A model generated the notes under the pieces. It was not told the origin of the DNA and made no database searches. It was given only the letters and a program-made list of their open reading frames with translations. This document shows, in pieces, positions 2,168 through 24,533 of a stretch of 25,633 nt of DNA. Every line of letters begins with the position of its first letter. The stretch's first letter is position 1. The DNA comes from a virus. Its lineage: Duplodnaviria > Heunggongvirae > Uroviricota > Caudoviricetes. Location of the stretch: positions 1-25,633 of the IMG/VR virus record IMGVR_UViG_2778261217_000004; one strand, written 5' to 3'. The translations under genes and the position numbers were made by a program.

Positions 2168-3232
2168 TTAAGTTGATTCCAGACTTCCTTTGGTAAATGC
2201 TTGTATCAGTCTGTTTGCTGCTGCTTTCTGCGCTGCCACATTGGCAATAACAGATAGTTTTTCCTGGCTGGCTTTCGTGCAGATCCCCGCCCAGTTATCC
2301 ATCAGAAAAAAATCCTCTCTTTCTGCAGAGCTGGTAGTTGCACATAGTTTTTCGATCATAGAAGTTATTTCTGCGATGGAATGATTAACCATCATCTGTT
2401 GAACCGCAAAACCGAAAGCGTTAATCATTACTCCATGGAACTGAATATAATCGCGCTTGTACGTAGCGTGGTGTACACCATGTCGGATTGAGTCAATCTG
2501 AGTTAGTGTAATCCATGCCTCCCAGACAGATTCTATATATCCCATTTCAAGTTGTTGATTGCCGTTCCTGGCGAACTTTGACGTTGCATCAGTGAGTGCC
2601 TTGAAACTCACCCACATATTACTTTTTAATGGCACTACGTTGTGTTCAAAATCGGTTATATCGGCAAATACAGTATGTTGGGTCAGGAAGGATATCATTC
2701 CCTGAGCAATATCATCCCGGCCGTTATACGCCATATTGATGGTCGCTGATGGCTTAGAAACGTTGTTATTTATGTCCGAAAAGAACTGCTGCCGGGTTTT
2801 TAGCGGCAGATTCATTGTAAGCATCATGGGAACCATGAGCGTTGATGGGGAACTTCGGCAAAATATCTCAATGCCAGCTGCACGATGTTGACCATCAAAA
2901 AGTTTTATTTCGGCGTCGAGGGGAATTCTGGCTATACCAACATTTGTGTTGCCAAACGGTACAAATTCTATATTCGAATCACAGTTACCTACGAGAGGGG
3001 GAATGATAAAAGGCTCATTTCTTGAGTCTGCGTTAGTGAGATAATTTAAAAATTTTCGTACTCGATTTGGATTAATTTCTCGCTGAGAGCGTTCCAGTGT
3101 ATGGCCGTAATTATCTGAAGCGAGGAAACGAGCCAGCGATCTTCCTGGTATGGTAAGGAAGAGTGTAACAGTACCACCCTGTACACCTTGCGATGCCGGA
3201 AATTCGAATGAATGATTACCAACCTGACTCAT
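2168..3232 (-). CDS. DGQHR-domain protein (DndB-like, ParB/Srx-fold)
   Basis: 354-aa ORF with the signature KLFDGQHRAAG; strong RBS AGGAGGATATAT before the ATG; lies downstream of exo in the leftward early operon. Confidence 0.8.
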   Translation of the reverse strand: MSQVGNHSFEFPASQGVQGGTVTLFLTIPGRSLARFLASDNYGHTLERSQREINPNRVRKFLNYLTNADSRNEPFIIPPLVGNCDSNIEFVPFGNTNVGIARIPLDAEIKLFDGQHRAAGIEIFCRSSPSTLMVPMMLTMNLPLKTRQQFFSDINNNVSKPSATINMAYNGRDDIAQGMISFLTQHTVFADITDFEHNVVPLKSNMWVSFKALTDATSKFARNGNQQLEMGYIESVWEAWITLTQIDSIRHGVHHATYKRDYIQFHGVMINAFGFAVQQMMVNHSIAEITSMIEKLCATTSSAEREDFFLMDNWAGICTKASQEKLSVIANVAAQKAAANRLIQAFTKGSLEST

Positions 3233-5911: not shown

Positions 5912-6424
5912 TTATTTCAAAGAAAAATTATGACTAGCGTATCTTGGAAGAAATTCATATAGTGTTAATGTCTTAACGCCGTGAGAAGCAGCAGCATCCG
6001 GGATCATTATTCTTTTTTTAGGTTTGCCACCGGATGGTTTCTCATGGGTAATAATAGTATATCCATGTGTCATCGCATGGGCTATTAAAAAAGCATCTGC
6101 TTTTTCATGGCTTGCAAAATCAAACTTTGCCTTTTCGGTAACATCTAATTTAGTTGACCAATTTATTAACTTTGCATAATTTTCTATTGAACTATGCTCA
6201 TCTTCGAAGAATGATGATGGTAACTCTTCTTTAATCCATTTACACAATGGATCATCTTTTGCACATAGTTCTTTTTTTACAGCATTAATGCTATAAATCA
6301 GACCATTCATGTGTAAAGCGAGAAGAAAATCCCAAAATATTTTGCAATAATTGAAGTTATATGCAAAGTTTTTTGCCTCTATGAAGACATTACTATCAAT
6401 TAAGAATTTTCCATTATGAATCAT
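5912..6424 (-). CDS. PIN-like (DUF4411-type) predicted nuclease
   Basis: 170 aa; N-terminal FLIDSNVFIEA resembles the first strand and Asp of PIN domains; ATGA start-stop overlap with upstream metallopeptidase gene. Confidence 0.7.
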   Translation of the reverse strand: MIHNGKFLIDSNVFIEAKNFAYNFNYCKIFWDFLLALHMNGLIYSINAVKKELCAKDDPLCKWIKEELPSSFFEDEHSSIENYAKLINWSTKLDVTEKAKFDFASHEKADAFLIAHAMTHGYTIITHEKPSGGKPKKRIMIPDAAASHGVKTLTLYEFLPRYASHNFSLK

Positions 6425-7560
6425 AGAGATTCTCGTTTTTTATAAAATTCAACAACTGTATCTGCTTTTACATTTAGCAGTACGCCTGCTTCCCTTAATG
6501 GTAATTGTTGAGACATTGCTTTGGAAATTATTATATTCGTAAGTTTTGGACTGTTACGAACAGGTAATGTGTTAAAGAAAGAACCACCATTAGATTCTTT
6601 TTTGGGCTTATTGTAAGCTTGATCTTTAATTATCTCCAAAGTGTTTCTTTCTATCAAATCTAATTGTAACGCTTTGATTGCACAAGCGAAATCACTAACC
6701 TTAAATAACTTAGAAACCTCTTTTACCCGATAATAATTATTATCGCTGGATGCATTAAGCCAGAAAGATTTGAAGAGATTATCAGGCATTAAGATTTCAG
6801 CAGCAACTTTATTACAAAAAGATTCTATGTTTTTTTCTGTGTCCCACCCAGAGACTCCATCGACTCCAAGCCAAAGATGAGCCACCTCATGAAATAATGT
6901 AAATACCTGCGCAGATAACGCGTCCGAGCTATTTACAAAAATGATCGGAGCAACGCTATCAGATATACAGAAACCACGAAACTCTCGCGTGTCAAGTTTT
7001 CTTTTATTATTATTACCCACAACACCATTCTTGAAAACTAATACGCCAGTGTCTTCTATTAGTTTTGCCACTTTAGAAAAATAGCTCTCAAAAGTGACAT
7101 TTTTTATCTCTTTTTGTATATCAAAATGTATTGTGTTTGCTATGTCTGTAGCAACAACCTTATAATTTAATTTTCTATTAAATTTAAATTTACCAATAAA
7201 ATCGAGTGGATCATCATTACCATTTTCTCTTAAATAGTCTTTGTACCACTCAAGTTTATATTCTATATCATAGTAAACATCAAAAAAATCTTTTCCTAAC
7301 TCACGGCTATTTATAGCTTGCCTTAAGTCAGGGATCTTGGGTTTGGCTGGAGTTGGTGGCGTTTCAAGAAATAAAAAACCGAAAGGGATTCCTCCAATTT
7401 TTGCCAGTTTTTCTGCTGCGGATTTACTTACCACTCCGTTAAGAAATTTATTAATCTTTTTGGGCATGACTTGGTCAGCAAGAGTTTCGATAGAAACTCC
7501 TTGAGAATTTGCTATCCAATCAATCATCTTCCTAGACAATTGAAATTCAACCGCTGCCAT
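6421..7560 (-). CDS. HTH-containing ImmA/IrrE-family zinc metallopeptidase (COG2856/DUF955-like)
   Basis: 379 aa; N-terminal HTH-like segment; HExxH motif HEVAHLWLG; AGGTGA RBS. Confidence 0.75.
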   Translation of the reverse strand: MAAVEFQLSRKMIDWIANSQGVSIETLADQVMPKKINKFLNGVVSKSAAEKLAKIGGIPFGFLFLETPPTPAKPKIPDLRQAINSRELGKDFFDVYYDIEYKLEWYKDYLRENGNDDPLDFIGKFKFNRKLNYKVVATDIANTIHFDIQKEIKNVTFESYFSKVAKLIEDTGVLVFKNGVVGNNNKRKLDTREFRGFCISDSVAPIIFVNSSDALSAQVFTLFHEVAHLWLGVDGVSGWDTEKNIESFCNKVAAEILMPDNLFKSFWLNASSDNNYYRVKEVSKLFKVSDFACAIKALQLDLIERNTLEIIKDQAYNKPKKESNGGSFFNTLPVRNSPKLTNIIISKAMSQQLPLREAGVLLNVKADTVVEFYKKRESL

Positions 7561-11303: not shown

Positions 11304-11370
11304 TGAAACAGGTGAGTTGAGTTCAAACTGTAGTACAATTCTCTCCAGTTTGAACAGGAAAGAATATGCT

Positions 11371-11703
11371 ATGAACCCTTATATTTATCTTGGTGGTGCA
11401 ATACTTGCAGAGGTCATTGGTACAACCTTAATGAAGTTTTCAGAAGGTTTTACACGATTATGGCCATCTGTTGGTACAATTATTTGTTATTGTGCATCAT
11501 TCTGGTTATTAGCTCAGACGCTGGCTTATATTCCTACAGGGATTGCTTATGCTATCTGGTCAGGAGTCGGTATTGTCCTGATTAGTTTACTGTCATGGGG
11601 ATTTTTCGGCCAACGGCTGGACCTGCCAGCCATTATAGGCATGATGTTGATTTGTGCCGGTGTGTTGGTTATTAATTTATTGTCACGAAGCACACCACAT
11701 TAA
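11371..11703 (+). CDS. emrE: SMR-family multidrug efflux transporter EmrE
   Basis: 110 aa from MNPYIYLGGAILAEVIGTTLMKFSEGF..., matching E. coli EmrE; track ORF starts further upstream at 11317. Confidence 0.93.
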   Translation: MNPYIYLGGAILAEVIGTTLMKFSEGFTRLWPSVGTIICYCASFWLLAQTLAYIPTGIAYAIWSGVGIVLISLLSWGFFGQRLDLPAIIGMMLICAGVLVINLLSRSTPH

Positions 11704-14879: not shown

Positions 14880-15335
14880 GTGAACCTCCCACAAGATGGC
14901 ATCAAATTACATCGCGGTAACTTCACCGCTGTCGGTCAGCAGATCCAGACTTATCTGGAAGACGGCAAATGCTTTCGCATGGTGCTTAAACCGTGGCGCG
15001 AGAGACGCAGTCTTTCCCAGAATGCACTCAGCCACATGTGGTACAGCGAAATCAGCGAGTACCTCATCAGCAGGGGGAAAACGTTCGCTACTGCAGTATG
15101 GGTAAAAGATGCACTCAAACACACATACCTCGGTTATGAAACCAAGGACTTGGTTGATGTCGTAACCGGCGAAATCACTACTATCCAGTCGTTACGCCAT
15201 ACCTCCGATCTTGATACCGGAGAGATGTATGTCTTCCTGTGTAAGGTTGAAGCCTGGGCGATGAATATTGGCTGCCACCTGACTATTCCGCAGAGCTGCG
15301 AGTTCCAGCTGCTGCGCGACAAGCAGGAGGCGTAA
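14880..15335 (+). CDS. ybcN: NinB-family recombination protein
   Basis: 151 aa; [12 protein letters not shown] resembles the NinB core; GGAGG RBS before GTG start; position in nin region. Confidence 0.8.
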
Positions 15336-16942: not shown

Positions 16943-18040
16943 TTAGAACTGGTAAACCAGACCTACAGCAACGATGTCATCAGTGCTTACACCGAGTGCT
17001 TTAGTGAAGTCATTTTTGTCAAGCAGGTTGATTTTGTAATCAACGAAAGTAGACATATTTTTGTTGAAGTAATAGGTTGCACCTACATCAACATATTTGA
17101 CTAAGTCCTGATCGCCCCATACTCCAAGATCCTTACCTTTAGATTGCAGGTAAGCAACGGACGGACGCAGACCGAAATCGAACTGATATTGTGCAACAGC
17201 TTCGAAGTTTTGAGCTTTATTAGCAACGAAGTGATCAGCAAATACAGTCATATTCTGGGTTTCAGAATAGGTAGTGGCCAGGTAAATGTTGTTAGCGTCA
17301 TATTTCAGACCTGCGGCCCAAACTTCTGCATTTTTACCGGAAGCAAATACTTCAGGAAGAACTTTCCCTGCATTAACTTGAGTGTCGGTACGATCAGATT
17401 TCGCATAAGTTGCACCGATACCGAATCCTTCGTATTCATAGGTAGCAGAGAAACCGAAGCCATCACCGTTACCTTCAGTGTAGTTATCGAAATCGCTACG
17501 ATCGTTTTTGCCTTGGTACTGAGCAGCAAAGTTCAGACCATCAACCAGACCAAAGAAGTCGTTGTTACGATAGGTTGCAACACCAGTGGTGCGACCAGTC
17601 ATGAACACATCTGTTTGAGTCCAGGTATCGCCACCGAATTCTGGCAGAACGTCAGTCCACGCACCGATGTCGTATGCTACACCGTAGTTACGGCCGTAAT
17701 CGATTGAGCCGTAGTCACCGAATTTCAGGCCTGCAAATGCAAGACGGGTTTTGTCTTTGGAGGAACCTTGAGATTCAGCGCGGTTGCCTTTGAATTCATA
17801 TTCCCACTGACCGAAACCAGTCAGCTGATCGTTGATTTGGGTTTCGCCTTTGAAGCCCAGACGAACATAAGTAGTATCACCATCATCTGCATCGTTAGAG
17901 GAAAAGTAGTGCTTGGCATTAACTTTCCCGTACAGATCCAGCTTGTTACTGTCTTTATTATAAATTTCAGCTGCCTGAGCAGACATCGCCATCAGTACTG
18001 ATGCAGCTACAGCAGAAATTGCCACTGTTAATTTTTTCAT
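16943..18040 (-). CDS. nmpC: Outer-membrane porin (OmpC/NmpC family), intact
   Basis: 365 aa with signal peptide [23 protein letters not shown] and C-terminal VGLVYQF; uninterrupted reading frame. Confidence 0.93.
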
Positions 18041-18628: not shown

Positions 18629-18844
18629 ATGAAATCCATGGATAAGTTAACAACGGGTGTCGCCTATGGCACCTCAGCAGGTAGTGCCGGTTACTGGTTT
18701 TTACAGCTGCTCGATAAAGTCACGCCCTCACAGTGGGCAGCAATAGGTGTGCTGGGTAGCCTGGTATTTGGCCTGCTGACGTACCTGACAAACCTTTATT
18801 TCAAGATTAAAGAAGATAAGCGCAAGGCTGCGAGAGGTGAATAA
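18629..18844 (+). CDS. essD: Class II holin (phage 21 S-like), dual start MKSMDK
   Basis: 71 aa [26 protein letters not shown]...; GAGGTGGGG RBS. Confidence 0.9.
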
Positions 18845-19224
18845 TGCCTCCATCATTACGAAAAGCCGTTGCTGCTGCTATTGGTGGCGGAGCAATTGCT
18901 ATAGCATCAGTGTTAATCACTGGCCCAAGTGGTAACGATGGTCTGGAAGGTGTCAGCTACATACCATACAAAGATATTGTTGGTGTATGGACTGTATGTC
19001 ACGGGCATACAGGAAAAGACATCATGCTCGGTAAAACGTATACCCACTCACTGTCCGGCACTGCTGCAAGCGCAGGTGCACACGCACATACTGTCGGTAT
19101 TGGTGCTCATACGCACTCGGTTGCGATTGGCTCACATGGACACACCATCACCGTTAACGCTGCTGGTAACGCGGAAAACACCGTCAAAAACATCGCATTT
19201 AACTATATTGTGAGGCTTGCATAA
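18844..19224 (+). pseudogene. rrrD: In-frame fusion: 5' 67 codons of SAR-endolysin joined to the 3' end of a tail-fibre gene
   Basis: Residues 1-67 match the phage 21/DLP12 SAR endolysin N-terminus up to GKTYT; residues 68-126 ([37 protein letters not shown]...[11 protein letters not shown]) are a tail-fibre C-terminus; junction near 19044/19045. Confidence 0.8.
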
Positions 19225-19808
19225 TGGCATTCAGAATGAGTGAACAACCACGGACCATAAAAATTTATAATCTGCTGGCCGGAACTAATGAATTTATTGG
19301 TGAAGGTGACGCATATATTCCGCCTCATACAGGTCTGCCAGCAAACAGTACCGATATTGCACCACCAGATATTCCGGCTGGCTTTGTGGCTGTTTTCAAC
19401 AGTGATGAGGCATCGTGGCATCTCGTTGAAGACCATCGGGGTAAAACCGTCTATGACGTGGCTTCCGGCGACGCGTTATTTATTTCTGAACTCGGCTCAT
19501 TACCGGAAAATGTCACCTGGTTATCCCCGGAAGGGGAGTTTCAGAAGTGGAACGGCACAACCTGGGTGAAAGATGCAGAAGCAGAAAAACTGTTCCGGAT
19601 CCGGGAGGCGGAAGAAACAAAAAACAGCCTGATGCGTGTAGCCAGTGAGCATATTGCGCCACTTCAGGATGCTGCAGATCTGGAAATCGCAACGGAGGAA
19701 GAAACCTCGTTGCTTGAAGCCTGGAAGAAGTATCGGGTGTTGCTGAATCGTGTTGATACATCAACTGCACCTGATATTGAGTGGCCTGCAATCCCTGTTA
19801 TGGAATAA
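19224..19808 (+). CDS. tfa: Tail fibre assembly protein (Tfa family)
   Basis: 194 aa [31 protein letters not shown]..., typical lambdoid Tfa; TAATG overlap with upstream stop. Confidence 0.9.
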
Positions 19809-20165
19809 TAGTTTTGTGATATGCCGCAGAAACGTTATATGCAATAACGTGCTGCGGTTGGCTGATGTACTTTCGAGAGTGTATTGAATAATTTCCAACC
19901 GTCATTAATTTTATTTATTTTTTGTATGAGAGGATTTGAACCTCCGAGCCTCGACACCTTATGACAACGCGATATTGCCTTGATGATCGCCATGTGCCAA
20001 AATAACCAATTGATAAATAAGTTTATTTTAATTGGTTGGAAGCAAGTCAGGTCAAATTCAGCATTCCGCTCTCTGTATCGGATAGTTAAATTTTTCTATA
20101 ACTGATAGTAATATGTTAAAACTCACACAGATAAATTATCATTGCTCAACAAGTATAATGGAGTT

Positions 20166-22124
20166 CCCGTGGATACAGCAGAACATGATGGCAAGTTTGC
20201 TTGGGCTAGTTTTTATGAGGCTTTTGCCAACGCGTTACTGACTTGGCGAAATCGTAGAGATGAATTAGTCAAAGGTATTCATCTAATTGCCTCGGGTGTG
20301 GAAGGAATGTCCCATCTGCAGGACAAATCTATTATGGGAGAGATCTTTCCCTTAAAAGACATTTGTCCGTTTACTACTATGGGCTTGTTCAATCGTAACT
20401 TGACCGACAGCAATCGCAAAATTATTGCTGCCAAGCTAGCGAATTTGTTGGGCGTGAACGAACCGATTCCAGACTCCTTTGCCGGAATCCCTCTGTTGAA
20501 TAACCAAAAATCTTGGTTCTTTGGTTATGAAAAGTCACGCGACCCTAATGACATTGAATGCTTGTGGGAAATGTTCTCACAGGCAATGACCTTTGCGGAT
20601 AACCAGAATACTAACTCTGCAGACTTCACTGCCGCATATGACATCGCTTCTACAGTAATGAATGTCGGTTGGAATCTCACCATGGGGTTGTACTGGACCC
20701 GTCCTTGGTTCTACCCCACTTTAGATAGCCAGTCGCAGTATTACATTCAGACAGTGTTAAACATTAAGATCATTAAAAACGGGGCAAAAGGTCGCTGTAG
20801 TGGACAAAGTTACCTGAGTCTTATGCGGGCGCTGAACGAGGTCTTTACCCAACCAAACTATCCGGTTCATTCTTTCCCAGAACTTTCCTTATCAGCGTGG
20901 AATACAGATCTTAGCCAGTCTAAAGATGAAGTGGCAAATAGAACGTGGAAAGCCTCTTTACTGAATAAAATTAAGGCGTTATGCCTGAAAAAAAATGGCC
21001 CTTATTTCACTGCTTCGGAGTTGGAAGAAAACTACTTGGACGTATTCAAGGTAGAGCATCCTGAGAGCAAAACTGTTACAAGCTCAATCTACTTTTATCT
21101 ACAGAAACTATGCAATGATGATGAGTTAAAGTCCCTCGAGTCCGGAAATTATGAATACCTGAATTTTGAGAAAAACGAATCCCAGACGATAACTGAGGAA
21201 ACTGTCGAAGAGAGTGCGCTGTTGCCAAAACTCACCCACGTTCCTTATGACATCAGTCATCTGGTGCAGGATGGCTGTTTCTTGGAAGAGGCTAAGATCC
21301 AACTCACACTTCAGCGCCTGATCGACAAGAAAAACCTGATATTACAAGGACCACCAGGAACTGGAAAAACTTGGTTAGCGCGACGTCTGGCGTACTGCTT
21401 GATGGGAGAAAAAGCACCTGAGCGTATTAGCGCGGTGCAATTTCACCCGAACCTCTCTTACGAAGACTTTATTCGCGGCTGGCGTCCAGGTAAAGAAGGG
21501 CAATTGACGCTAATTGATGGACCTTTTGTAAATGCAATCAAAACTGCAGTCAATAATCCTACCTCGAAATATGTGGTGATAATTGAAGAGATTAATCGTG
21601 GCAATCCGGCGCAAATCTTCGGTGAAACACTCACATTGATGGAAGCAGATAAACGCACGCCGACTGAGGCATTATCTCTTTCCTATCCTAAAAATGCTGA
21701 TGAAAAAATATACATTCCTGAGAATCTATATATCATCGGTACGATGAATATTGCAGACCGCTCACTCGCACTACTTGACCTAGCGCTGCGCCGTCGTTTC
21801 GCGTTTATCGATCTAAAGCCAGCTTTTAATGACGCGTGGAGAAACTGGGTAAATTATAATTACGCAATTGATTTTGACATGTTAGCATTCATCAAATCTC
21901 GACTGACGGTATTAAACGATATGCTGGCAAAAGATGTTACCTTAGGACCACAGTTTTGTATCGGTCACAGCTATGTCACCCCAGCTATCGGCCAAAAAAT
22001 CAACGATGCCCAGGCTTGGTATGAACAAGTCGTTGATACAGAGATCTGCCCTTTGCTCGCCGAATATTGGTTCGATGCTCCAAATAAAGTCGATGAAGCC
22101 AGAAAAGTGTTATTAGCAAAATGA
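20166..22124 (+). CDS. mcrB: McrB-like AAA+ GTPase with a long uncharacterised N-terminal domain
   Basis: C-terminal Walker A GPPGTGKT, Walker B VVIIEEINRGN, McrB signature MNIADRS and RRRF; first ~390 residues not recognisable; start taken as GTG 20166 (GGAG RBS), open frame begins at TTG 20142. Confidence 0.8.
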   Translation, partial: PVDTAEHDGKFAWASFYEAFANALLTWRNRRDELVKGIHLIASGVEGMSHLQDKSIMGEIFPLKDICPFTTMGLFNRNLTDSNRKIIAAKLANLLGVNEPIPDSFAGIPLLNNQKSWFFGYEKSRDPNDIECLWEMFSQAMTFADNQNTNSADFTAAYDIASTVMNVGWNLTMGLYWTRPWFYPTLDSQSQYYIQTVLNIKIIKNGAKGRCSGQSYLSLMRALNEVFTQPNYPVHSFPELSLSAWNTDLSQSKDEVANRTWKASLLNKIKALCLKKNGPYFTASELEENYLDVFKVEHPESKTVTSSIYFYLQKLCNDDELKSLESGNYEYLNFEKNESQTITEETVEESALLPKLTHVPYDISHLVQDGCFLEEAKIQLTLQRLIDKKNLILQGPPGTGKTWLARRLAYCLMGEKAPERISAVQFHPNLSYEDFIRGWRPGKEGQLTLIDGPFVNAIKTAVNNPTSKYVVIIEEINRGNPAQIFGETLTLMEADKRTPTEALSLSYPKNADEKIYIPENLYIIGTMNIADRSLALLDLALRRRFAFIDLKPAFNDAWRNWVNYNYAIDFDMLAFIKSRLTVLNDMLAKDVTLGPQFCIGHSYVTPAIGQKINDAQAWYEQVVDTEICPLLAEYWFDAPNKVDEARKVLLAK

Positions 22125-23242
22125 CGACAATAACCGGGAGTGAGCAACATACAGCATCACGTATTCCCATGCGAAATATCTGGATGCTGATGCTGTACGC
22201 TTCAGATCTGTTTCGCCAGTTAGGGCGCAATCAGATCGCAGTAGAAGATAACCCAGCAGAAATCCCCGACCTGGTGGCGACAATCCTCCTTCATGAGATT
22301 ACGCTGCGCCGACGTCGCAATTTAAATATGGGATACCAAACTTGTCATGCGGCCCTGAACCGGGTGAGAGGGCGCATTGACATACTGTATACTGCCAGTC
22401 ATCAACTGCTGGAACGGGGACAGGTTGCCTGCCATTTTCAAGACATAACCCTCAACACCCCCCGAAATCGCTATGTTCGCTGTGCGTTAGAACGTCTGGC
22501 CTCAATCATAGTGAAACCGTCTTTGGCGGCAGATTGCCATTTTATGGCAATATCACTTCGCCGTGAGGGGATAAATGGAGGATATCCTGCCCCCCACGAA
22601 TTACCCTCAGTGTGGCGTTTTGGACGCCATGATGCCGCAGATAAACCGATGGTCGATGCCGCACGATTAGCTTTTGAACTGCTGATGCCGACCGAAGATC
22701 AAGGCCAATATCTTTTACCTGCGCCCTCAAATAACCTTTACTGGATGAGAAGACTATTTGAAAAAGGTATCGCTGGCTTATATCGTGTACACCTTGCCAA
22801 AACAACTTGGCAGGTCTCTGCAGGGAAAGAGCTGAAATGGGCGTTGAGCGATCAAAGTGCAGGTAGTGCAGAGATTTTCCCGACAATGAAGTCAGACATT
22901 ATTCTGGAACACAAGACTGCCCAGCGGCGTATTATTATCGATACCAAATTTAATTCGATTCTGACAAAGGGTTGGCATCGGGAGCAATCACTACGTAATG
23001 GCTATATTTATCAGCTATATACCTACCTTAGAACACAGGAGAACAAGACGGATCCGCTTTCGCTCAATGCCGCTGGTCTTCTACTTCATCCAGCTGTTGG
23101 CTATATGCTTAATGAGTATGTTGTCACTCAGGGACATAAGATCCATTTTGCTACAGTAGATATGACGGTAGATGCTAAAGCAATTAAAAAACAATTGCTG
23201 GCAATAGCCCATGATTGTGCAGGAGTCGCGGTTGATGACTAA
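22121..23242 (+). CDS. mcrC: McrC-like endonuclease subunit (PD-(D/E)xK)
   Basis: 373 aa; ATGA overlap with the McrB-like gene; nuclease-like block DIILEHK...IIIDTKF. Confidence 0.8.
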   Translation: MTTITGSEQHTASRIPMRNIWMLMLYASDLFRQLGRNQIAVEDNPAEIPDLVATILLHEITLRRRRNLNMGYQTCHAALNRVRGRIDILYTASHQLLERGQVACHFQDITLNTPRNRYVRCALERLASIIVKPSLAADCHFMAISLRREGINGGYPAPHELPSVWRFGRHDAADKPMVDAARLAFELLMPTEDQGQYLLPAPSNNLYWMRRLFEKGIAGLYRVHLAKTTWQVSAGKELKWALSDQSAGSAEIFPTMKSDIILEHKTAQRRIIIDTKFNSILTKGWHREQSLRNGYIYQLYTYLRTQENKTDPLSLNAAGLLLHPAVGYMLNEYVVTQGHKIHFATVDMTVDAKAIKKQLLAIAHDCAGVAVDD

Positions 23243-23954
23243 CCATCCTATAAGGCACTGGCTGTAATATAATCAATAGTTTCAATTAAGTAGCTGTTAT
23301 CCGTGCTTAGTCATCATATGACGCACCACGGTCTAATTTTCCTGCTCATACATTGATATATCCTTGTCGTGCCCGGAAAGTCGCAGTCCACTATGAGGTA
23401 TACCGATTGCCAGCACCAAAAGCTTCTTTGTGATTATTATATCGGGGAATGCCTATTTTTTTAGTGACAATATCAGATAGCAATTAATAAGCGGTGCCGG
23501 TAATGGATGTTATGTTTAATGTATAGACACAGCCATCATAAACTAAACGTCTGTTGTTCGCTCATAACCGACATTTATCTCAGTTATGGAAGATAATTAT
23601 GTATGCAGATAATGGGGCAGACAGTCGTGGAGTAAACAAGGTTTTGCACTGCTTGGCGGCATCGTTATCTTATTTTTAATTATGTGCCTCTTAACATAAG
23701 TTGGGACAAAACAGAGACACATAAGGTCTCACAAAGGTCTGCAAGGCCTCATATGTATTGAGATGTTAATAAAATGTAGGCTTGTAATTTGGATATAAAT
23801 GGTAGAGAAAACCTTTCCCCAAAATAAAAACGAACGTCAATGAAATCAAACGGTTGAATAAAGTTTATTTTGGCTAATAAAAAGACAATAAAATAATTTT
23901 TATCATTAAATATCAATGGCTTGAATTCATGGTTTTTATATACTGTTACGCCAT

Positions 23955-24107
23955 ATGGGCTGGACTGAAGCCGCAGACCTGATTGTTAAAGGTATGGAAG
24001 GCGCAATCAACGCCAAGACTGTAACCTATGACTTCGAACGTCTGATGGAAGGCGCTAAACTGCTGAAATGTTCAGAATTTGGTGATGCGATCATCAAGAA
24101 CATGTAA
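23955..24107 (+). pseudogene. icd: 3' fragment of isocitrate dehydrogenase gene (icd remnant at the prophage junction)
   Basis: Frame encodes ...[49 protein letters not shown], the Icd C-terminus; upstream frame is closed at 23922-23924. Confidence 0.88.
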
Positions 24108-24130
24108 TCACTACATGTGTTTAATATTGC

Positions 24131-24165
24131 AACGGGCGTATAACACGCCCGTTGTTTTATTTATG
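24131..24165 (+). terminator. icd intrinsic terminator
   Basis: Hairpin AACGGGCGT-(5 nt)-ACGCCCGTT followed by GTTTTATTTAT. Confidence 0.75.
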
Positions 24166-24209
24166 TAGGTATTATTAATAGCATATCGAGCATATTTATA
24201 TAAAACCCT

Positions 24210-24533
24210 TTACTTGAGCCCATATGGGCATATTTTTATAATGCAACTATTATGCAAACATTTATTTGTTATTTTGCTTTCTCCTGGAGGACACTCTTGA
24301 CTGCTTTTGAGTAGACTCCATAAATCCTTGTTGAATGGTGCGATGTTATAAATAGTAATAGGATATTCTTTATCTTTAAGGATAATTCCAGATTTAACCG
24401 GTGTAAATATACTGCCAGGAGGGAGAAATATAGTAGATTGATACCAGATGATCATTTTCATATTACCCCATATGGCTGAAAAAGATATGCCGCATGAAGG
24501 TTGAATTATCGTGTCAATTACTATCCACTTCAT
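24210..24533 (-). CDS. iraM: Anti-adaptor protein IraM
   Basis: 107 aa [36 protein letters not shown]..., matching E. coli IraM; AT-rich. Confidence 0.9.

Follow-up and report, generated by a model that had tools for sequence, protein, structure and literature searches.

A prophage-borne McrBC pair of Escherichia coli with a DUF8425 and winged helix N-terminus, a putative sensor of modified DNA

McrBC serves as the textbook example of a type IV restriction enzyme; its target is set by the N-terminus of McrB, a part that is well known to be swapped among McrB proteins. The locus described here raises the question of which DNA such an enzyme would recognize when the N-terminal region of its McrB is of another kind than that of the K-12 protein. 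The stretch that we analyzed (the window) comprises 25,633 nucleotides, positions 1 to 25,633 of the IMG/VR record IMGVR_UViG_2778261217_000004, and contains a lambdoid prophage integrated at icd in Escherichia coli. A mcrB-like gene (20169..22124, + strand, 651 amino acids) and mcrC (22121..23242, + strand, 373 amino acids) lie between the upstream neighbor tfa (19224..19808) and a 3' remnant of icd (icdC; 23955..24107, + strand; partial isocitrate dehydrogenase in RefSeq), which marks the integration site of the prophage on its attR side. A preliminary description of this DNA had recognized a McrBC-like pair in exactly this position and had left some 390 N-terminal residues of the first protein without assignment. 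Our analysis places the pair in the McrBC family and makes it rather probable that it constitutes a type IV, GTP-dependent restriction module whose composite sensor, formed by a DUF8425 domain and a winged helix, is directed at modified DNA other than the 5-methylcytosine (5mC) target of the K-12 enzyme.

The C-terminal part of the mcrB-like protein (residue numbers refer to its 651-residue version throughout) is a McrB-type AAA+ GTPase with its lid (residues 369-651; 21273..22121, + strand). It matches the Pfam families AAA_5 (E 7.9e-27) and PF28529 (McrB_lid), and among solved structures in the PDB it is closest to McrB of E. coli (6hz4 and 6ut6, E ~1e-75, residues 360-643). By BLASTP, residues 178-457 of K-12 McrB align with residues 371-650 at 47% identity. 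The four motifs listed earlier (GPPGTGKT, IIEEINRGN, MNIADRS and RRRF) are all found in the translation, and the GTPase signatures are intact, namely Walker A (GPPGTGKT), Walker B (IIEE, a conservative variant common to the whole clade), NxxD (as MNIAD) and the arginines of RRRF. The NxxD motif is the GTP-specific signature of the canonical GTPase clade (PMC11090510). The product of the second gene matches the Pfam family McrBC (PF10117, E 5.1e-21), scores above the cut-off of the NCBIfam McrC equivalog (355.6 bits, cut-off 338) and aligns over its full length with K-12 McrC (24% identity), the D...DxK columns of the PD-(D/E)xK site being kept (SDI...IIIDTKF as compared to TDI...LIVDAKY in K-12).

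The pair thus combines an NxxD AAA+ GTPase with an adjoining McrC that has a DUF2357-type N-terminus and a PD-(D/E)xK site and, by these sequence features, it is a member of the McrBC family, in line with the preliminary description. Like EcoKMcrBC (6hz4, 6ut6), it consists of two overlapping genes, with the GTPase motifs in one product and a full-length McrC with D...DxK as the other. It differs from EcoKMcrBC in its Walker B motif (IIEE here, IIDE there), in the distant sequence of its McrC and in its location, the window module being borne by a prophage at icd and the K-12 system residing in the immigration control region. No methyltransferase gene is present among the open reading frames (ORFs) listed between tfa and the icd remnant.

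The most substantial difference from EcoKMcrBC is at the N-terminus, where the 161-residue DUF3578/ADAM reader of 5mC is replaced by ~368 residues comprising DUF8425, a winged helix and a linker. In BLASTP, no part of this region could be aligned with K-12 McrB; hhalign comparison of the family profile with McrB residues 1-161 returned a probability of 0.04%, and the region has neither a DUF3578 match in Pfam nor a match in the PDB. The canonical McrB 5mC domain (DUF3578/ADAM) is ruled out by these four comparisons. The view that this N-terminus is unlike the canonical methylcytosine domain is thereby upheld, since the alignment that would have contradicted it was sought by BLASTP and hhalign and is absent. 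In addition, the NCBIfam McrB equivalog NF008457 gives 262.5 bits (cut-off 637), with model positions 176-452 as the only part covered, and searches of the protein with NCBIfam and PADLOC matched only the AAA region, with nothing for the N-terminus.

A search for homologues with residues 1-376 as the query returned 312 proteins, and their alignment divides the region into three segments. The first is DUF8425 (PF28527; residues 1-250; 20169..20918, + strand), which is mostly alpha-helical and for which an Ogg/HhH-GPD glycosylase-like fold is predicted (see below). It is followed by a DpnI_C-type winged helix (residues 252-335; 20922..21173, + strand) with the recognition helix TSSIYFYLQKL at residues 304-314, and by an acidic linker (residues 336-368; 21174..21272, + strand) that is variable or gapped among homologues and predicted to be disordered, its predicted local distance difference test score (pLDDT) falling below 50 at residues 343-360. 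The DUF8425 assignment was taken from precomputed Pfam annotation (our local copy of Pfam being older than PF28527), which gives PF28527, PF28529 (McrB_lid) and AAA_5 for the identical protein cluster (P0001) and PF28527 for all of the homologues as well. The N-terminal residues considered unassignable at the outset are, accordingly, now largely assigned. The same architecture, with a DpnI_C-like winged helix placed after an N-terminal domain (NTD) and before a McrB-like NTPase whose partner is McrC, corresponds to the "NTD-wH-NTPase + McrC" class listed by Helbrecht et al. in 2024 as uncharacterized and with an NTD "of unknown function" (PMC11037411). In that study, one attempt to purify a representative failed, and the NTD was left unassigned (PMC11037411). 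Our literature search found nothing under the name DUF8425 and no tested E. coli McrBC variants of this kind.

DUF8425 is widespread and strongly conserved, with 45-60% identity among all homologues across phyla. A profile of this domain alone recovered 2415 representative clusters at E <= 1e-3 (1.84 billion proteins), and a McrB-type AAA_5 domain was present in 55 of the 60 top matches that were sampled. Residues R30, D64, P67, N75, R76, R83, R124, W133, W176, P179 and D186 are each at least 92% conserved over 257 sequences. In IMG/VR, McrC was encoded directly downstream on all of the 20 viral contigs with a DUF8425-McrB gene. These partner McrCs are 48-52% identical to the window McrC as compared to 24% for K-12 McrC, and it is on this ground that the module is classified, by sequence, as a distinct McrBC lineage. 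The domains that accompany DUF8425 vary, comprising the DpnI-type winged helix of the window protein, Mrr_N (P0038), HARE-HTH and EVE (P0313); this recurrent company of modified-DNA readers (EVE, Mrr_N, HARE-HTH) was counted in favor of a sensor function. Many DUF8425-McrB homologues (P0021, P0024, P0027 and others) also have a conserved N-terminal extension of ~167 residues with no match in Pfam or the PDB. On Bacteroidales plasmids, DUF8425 occurs stand-alone or fused to FRG, without a GTPase (e.g. L009 3998-5482), and a search seeded with one divergent Bacteroidales member gave stand-alone, FRG-fused and EVE-fused forms.

Which of the two folded N-terminal segments would determine specificity? 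The winged helix is an insertion of ~80 residues restricted to one subclade of DUF8425-McrB proteins, and among the 20 IMG/VR contigs it was seen only in those of E. coli. Its relationship to the DNA-reading winged helix of R.DpnI (4esj, 4kyw) is clear. The profile of this segment matches R.DpnI residues 188-256 with E 6.5e-13, and Pfam DpnI_C is detected in homologues at 67-84% identity (P0011, E 6.5e-6; P0016, 2.1e-7; P0066, 2.8e-12). DpnI contacts the two methyl groups and the bases of GATC through residues E228, K229, R231, Q232 and Q235, which belong to its recognition helix (PMC3424567). The corresponding residues of the window protein (aligned with a PDB chain offset of +3) are S305, S306, Y308, F309 and Q312, so that four of the five pocket and base-contact residues are replaced, and the wider family consensus at these positions is S, T, A, R, Q. 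The recognition helix retains its LQxL core, including Q312, the equivalent of DpnI Q235, which is invariant in the family. The domain also differs from that of R.DpnI in its placement, being located between two domains as opposed to C-terminally to a PD-(D/E)xK nuclease. Taken together, these replacements suggest that the winged helix is probably not a reader of Dam sites, and a changed specificity is a reasonable interpretation of its sequence. E. coli methylates every GATC, and a resident Dam-dependent nuclease would be lethal; the loss of the DpnI pocket residues fits this aspect of host biology.

The same homology invites an explanation in which specificity truly resides in the winged helix, which would read N6-methyladenine (6mA) in a non-Dam context, for instance from adenine methylation encoded by phages, or other adenine modifications, with DUF8425 acting as a scaffold or regulator of the hexamer. 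Its descent from a 6mA reader and its invariant glutamine would fit such a role, as would the Dam-dependent toxicity of related winged helix fusions (PMC11037411). We nevertheless consider this explanation unlikely. Most DUF8425-McrB proteins are devoid of the winged helix, which consequently cannot be the core sensor of the lineage; the DpnI pocket is largely lost, and in the window protein itself the winged helix does not reach the threshold at which Pfam detects DpnI_C. The window protein lacks the DpnI residues for 6mA and GATC and, as its host is Dam+, the Dam-dependent behavior of the tested fusions (PMC11037411) is not expected of it.

These observations shift attention to DUF8425 and its fold. 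An AlphaFold model of residues 1-252 was obtained with high scores (pLDDT 92.7, predicted template modeling score 0.91). A Foldseek search with this model, which covered the PDB, gave nothing significant (best E 0.21, TM ~0.3); among the 50 top sub-threshold matches, ~40 are helix-hairpin-helix (HhH-GPD) glycosylases, which represent five distinct proteins (SsOgg, MjOgg, human and mouse OGG1, Tm1821 and MutY). The hallmark of HhH-GPD proteins is a hairpin followed by a Gly/Pro-rich loop and a catalytic Asp ~20 residues downstream. Inspection of the model by eye revealed a candidate for such an arrangement, formed by a helix (residues 150-160), a hairpin (MNVG), a second helix (169-177) and a Pro-rich loop (RPWFYPTLD); D186 lies 19 residues past the hairpin Gly, where it caps the next helix, a distance that matches HhH-GPD spacing. 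Based on the model, we somewhat favor the interpretation that DUF8425 has a diverged Ogg/HhH-GPD-like fold.

A precedent for this type of sensor comes from the END nucleases described in a 2025 preprint, PLD nucleases that sense their DNA with an EndoIII/Ogg-like domain inactivated as a catalyst (PMC12191111). These enzymes restrict hypermodified phages, including T4 with glc-hmC and phages with 7-deazaguanine or hypermodified T, and a reciprocal search by the same authors recovered the END-type sensor in fusions with a NucS-like nuclease as well as with "the McrB-like GTPase" (PMC12191111). A glycosylase-fold sensor on McrB is plausible for the very reason that the preprint reports such a sensor on McrB-like GTPases, and the phages restricted by END nucleases suggest a class of targets. 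As in END, a glycosylase-fold domain (predicted in our case) would act as the modification sensor, and Ogg and OGG1 are the top structural neighbors in both, for DUF8425 at sub-threshold scores. Unlike END, the effector here is a McrB GTPase with McrC as opposed to a PLD nuclease, and DUF8425 has no detectable sequence link to the EndoIII/OGG-like families of Pfam.

Several results weigh against the proposed sensor and its fold. In Pfam, DUF8425 showed no relationship to HhH-GPD or OGG-like families at E <= 10, and a search of PDB sequences with the DUF8425 hidden Markov model likewise gave nothing at E <= 10. Comparison by hhalign with E. coli AlkA and Nth, using profiles of 25 and of 257 sequences, yielded probabilities below 1%, and the candidate HhH stretch was paired by hhalign with a different segment of EndoIII at negligible probability. 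DUF8425 may not be the iEndoIII domain that the preprint reports on McrB, and no PLD-DUF8425 fusions were found in plasmid tblastn hits, in the 60 top representative hits or in the search seeded with the divergent Bacteroidales member. DUF8425 is also unusually invariant for a specificity domain and could have a catalytic or structural role instead. Finally, a literature search found no experiment on the window protein or a close homologue.

A catalytic role could mean that DUF8425 is an active monofunctional DNA glycosylase that removes a modified base, with McrBC subsequently processing abasic or nicked DNA, so that excision would be coupled to cleavage by the motor. Near-invariant acidic and polar residues (D64, N75, R76 and D186, the last of them 93% D and 5% E over the 257 sequences) and the spacing of D186 in the model would be compatible with catalysis, and a glycosylase-based antiphage defense does exist in the form of Brig1, as cited in two papers (PMC12191111, PMC13216743). 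The related END sensor, on the other hand, is catalytically inactive (PMC12191111), and we find an active glycosylase improbable. A broader variant of this idea takes DUF8425 on McrBC to be either a functional glycosylase of the HhH-GPD type or a sensor that flips bases whatever their modification. This widespread lineage would then detect many phage hypermodifications with one invariant pocket, perhaps with excision coupled to GTP-driven cleavage, and the winged helix, EVE and Mrr_N would be left merely to tune the targeting; the variant is of a quite speculative nature, and we give it little weight.

The preferred interpretation of the pair as a type IV module with a composite DUF8425-winged helix sensor can be formulated as a sequence of steps. 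The N-terminal modules would bind a non-canonical base in incoming DNA, and DUF8425 would probably extrude this base into a pocket in the manner of HhH-GPD proteins. By extension from EcoKMcrBC, the GTPase domains would form a hexamer and recruit McrC. Hydrolysis of GTP would then drive DNA translocation, and collision or stalling would result in a double-strand cut at the PD-(D/E)xK site of McrC, by which the module may act against phages. The published model of EcoKMcrBC includes binding of a modified site, assembly of a hexamer with McrC, GTP-driven translocation and cleavage (PMC7680126, PMC11090510). As the host is E. coli, the target can be neither Dam G6mATC nor Dcm C5mCWGG; the most likely targets appear to be phage-type hypermodified or other non-host bases.

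Is the module likely to be functional at all? The prophage in the window is defective and has lost all of its structural genes, and in some strains insertion sequences (IS) are found in or beside the module, so that it might be taken for a decaying passenger. It might also represent an RNA-acting or abortive-infection system, given that the CoCoNuT branch of McrBC is predicted to target RNA (PMC11090510). Several observations render either alternative very improbable. Both ORFs are intact and all catalytic motifs are present. The module is conserved at >=99% identity in 305 of the 5426 complete E. coli genomes (~5.6%), always on the chromosome, and its place at attR is kept also in genomes with a different prophage upstream. 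As for CoCoNuTs, the GTPase has NxxD and not their NxD, and coiled-coil, CSD and HEPN parts are lacking, by which membership in that branch is ruled out.

The distribution of the module also sheds light on its mobility. The 3' end of mcrC, the spacer, the icd remnant and iraM are contiguous in 303 of the 305 genomes (positions 22700-24400 of the window matched at least 80% as one place), and the upstream junction with tfa is kept in just 51. Upstream of the module, some strains have IS3, IS1 or a pin-like recombinase pseudogene. The AT-rich spacer of ~710 bp between mcrC and the icd remnant (23243..23954) contains no convincing ORF and travels with the module; it may be regulatory, a remnant or att-related. 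No nucleotide match to the E. coli module was found in GenBank phage records. Outside E. coli, the pair is present in Enterobacter hormaechei as a clean two-gene insertion and in Salmonella on a CP4-type island beside a NACHT protein, which suggests a defense-island context. On this Salmonella island (L011 11389-15426), a 1345-residue NACHT-like protein follows the McrBC pair, and antirestriction, RadC and DUF932 genes are present.

The preliminary description had drawn an analogy with e14 and proposed a hotspot at which modification-dependent nucleases are swapped. The analogy holds, in that the slot directly before icdC in K-12 is occupied by pinE-mcrA. EcoKMcrA of e14 resembles the window module in being a type IV enzyme and the last cargo before the icd remnant; it differs in being a single-chain HNH enzyme with a NEco reader of 5mC and 5hmC, and the two have no sequence in common. 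The hotspot for nucleases, on the other hand, is contradicted by a comparison of attR-proximal cargo in 11 genomes with icd prophages, where mcrA was found once, the McrBC pair described here twice, sitABCD six times (APEC O1, SCU-124, 1403KP, AVS0968, AHB1 and 25POL) and an ompT/acetyltransferase/methyltransferase cargo once, the last of these being the cluster of ompT, acetyltransferase, methyltransferase and hydrolase genes in O111:H21 15A. The slot is a general site of prophage cargo (morons) that has twice acquired unrelated type IV enzymes.

The two genes are joined by an ATGA, the ATG of mcrC (22121-23) lying on the TGA of the mcrB-like gene (22122-24), and this 4-nucleotide overlap confirms the coupling noted earlier for the McrC-like gene of 373 amino acids; an identical overlap is seen in gene calls on the Salmonella and Enterobacter homologues. 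Among six-frame ORFs of the + strand, the pair appears as 20142..22124 (660 amino acids from TTG) and 22121..23242 (373 amino acids from ATG). The 660-codon ORF reported previously does exist from TTG 20142, and the gene itself probably has 651 codons from GTG 20169. This start is the more probable because a GGAG Shine-Dalgarno sequence (20160..20163, + strand, read from the sequence) is located 5 nucleotides upstream of it, because RefSeq places the start of WP_021558813.1 ("AAA family ATPase") there on 100%-identical DNA of strain SCU-152, and because close homologues are all 650-651 amino acids long. For McrC, RefSeq (WP_001425460.1) begins at 22169, 48 nucleotides past the overlapping ATG. 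We have kept 22121, since the downstream start would drop a conserved "IP" aligned with residues 6-7 of K-12 McrC; the overlapping start is the one taken in the Salmonella and Enterobacter gene calls. A search around the module for tRNA and other RNA elements, promoters and terminators gave nothing over background and no tRNA.

The remainder of the prophage has the appearance of a deletion derivative. Relative to SCU-152, it lacks approximately 26 kb with the head and tail genes, and the genes from int to lysis, tfa and the McrBC cargo are left. An ORF at 18844-19224 (+ strand) fuses the N-terminus of a SAR-type lysozyme (RrrD-like) to the His-rich C-terminal end of a tail fiber. A match to Rfam IS009 (RF02111; 19567-19765, + strand, 217.7 bits, at the gathering score) falls within the 3' portion of the tail-fiber assembly gene, a short distance upstream of the module. 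Beside the prophage repressor region, an ImmA/IrrE metallopeptidase gene (6421-7560) overlaps a DUF4411 gene (5912-6424; both within 5912-7560, - strand), and the two could form a second defense or toxin-antitoxin-like cargo. A gene for a DGQHR-domain protein of a DndB-like family (2168-3232, - strand), located between exo/bet and xis/int, is possibly another DNA-modification-related accessory gene of the prophage. Further cargo annotated on the identical SCU-152 DNA includes an EmrE multidrug transporter (11317-11703, + strand), YbcN, a "DNA base-flipping protein" (14880-15335, + strand), and an OmpC-like porin (16943-18040, - strand).

The architecture of this McrB was catalogued in 2024 and its N-terminal domain already has a Pfam DUF number, so it is not categorically new. 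What the analysis adds concerns the family and its host. The RefSeq labels of the pair, "AAA family ATPase" and a 5-methylcytosine-specific McrC, both probably misstate what it recognizes. The attR end of icd prophages is kept as a cargo slot even after decay of the prophage. DUF8425 would be the sensor domain of more than 2400 sequence clusters that have no assigned function, and the glycosylase-like fold provides a concrete, testable hypothesis for a sensor that is common in E. coli. If this fold is true, McrBC would become the second effector class tied to repair-glycosylase folds that sense hypermodified phage DNA. It would then have a bearing on predicting the host range of phages and how phage therapy will turn out, as well as on the failed transformation of some E. 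coli by modified DNA, and it may possibly yield new reagents that cut modified DNA.

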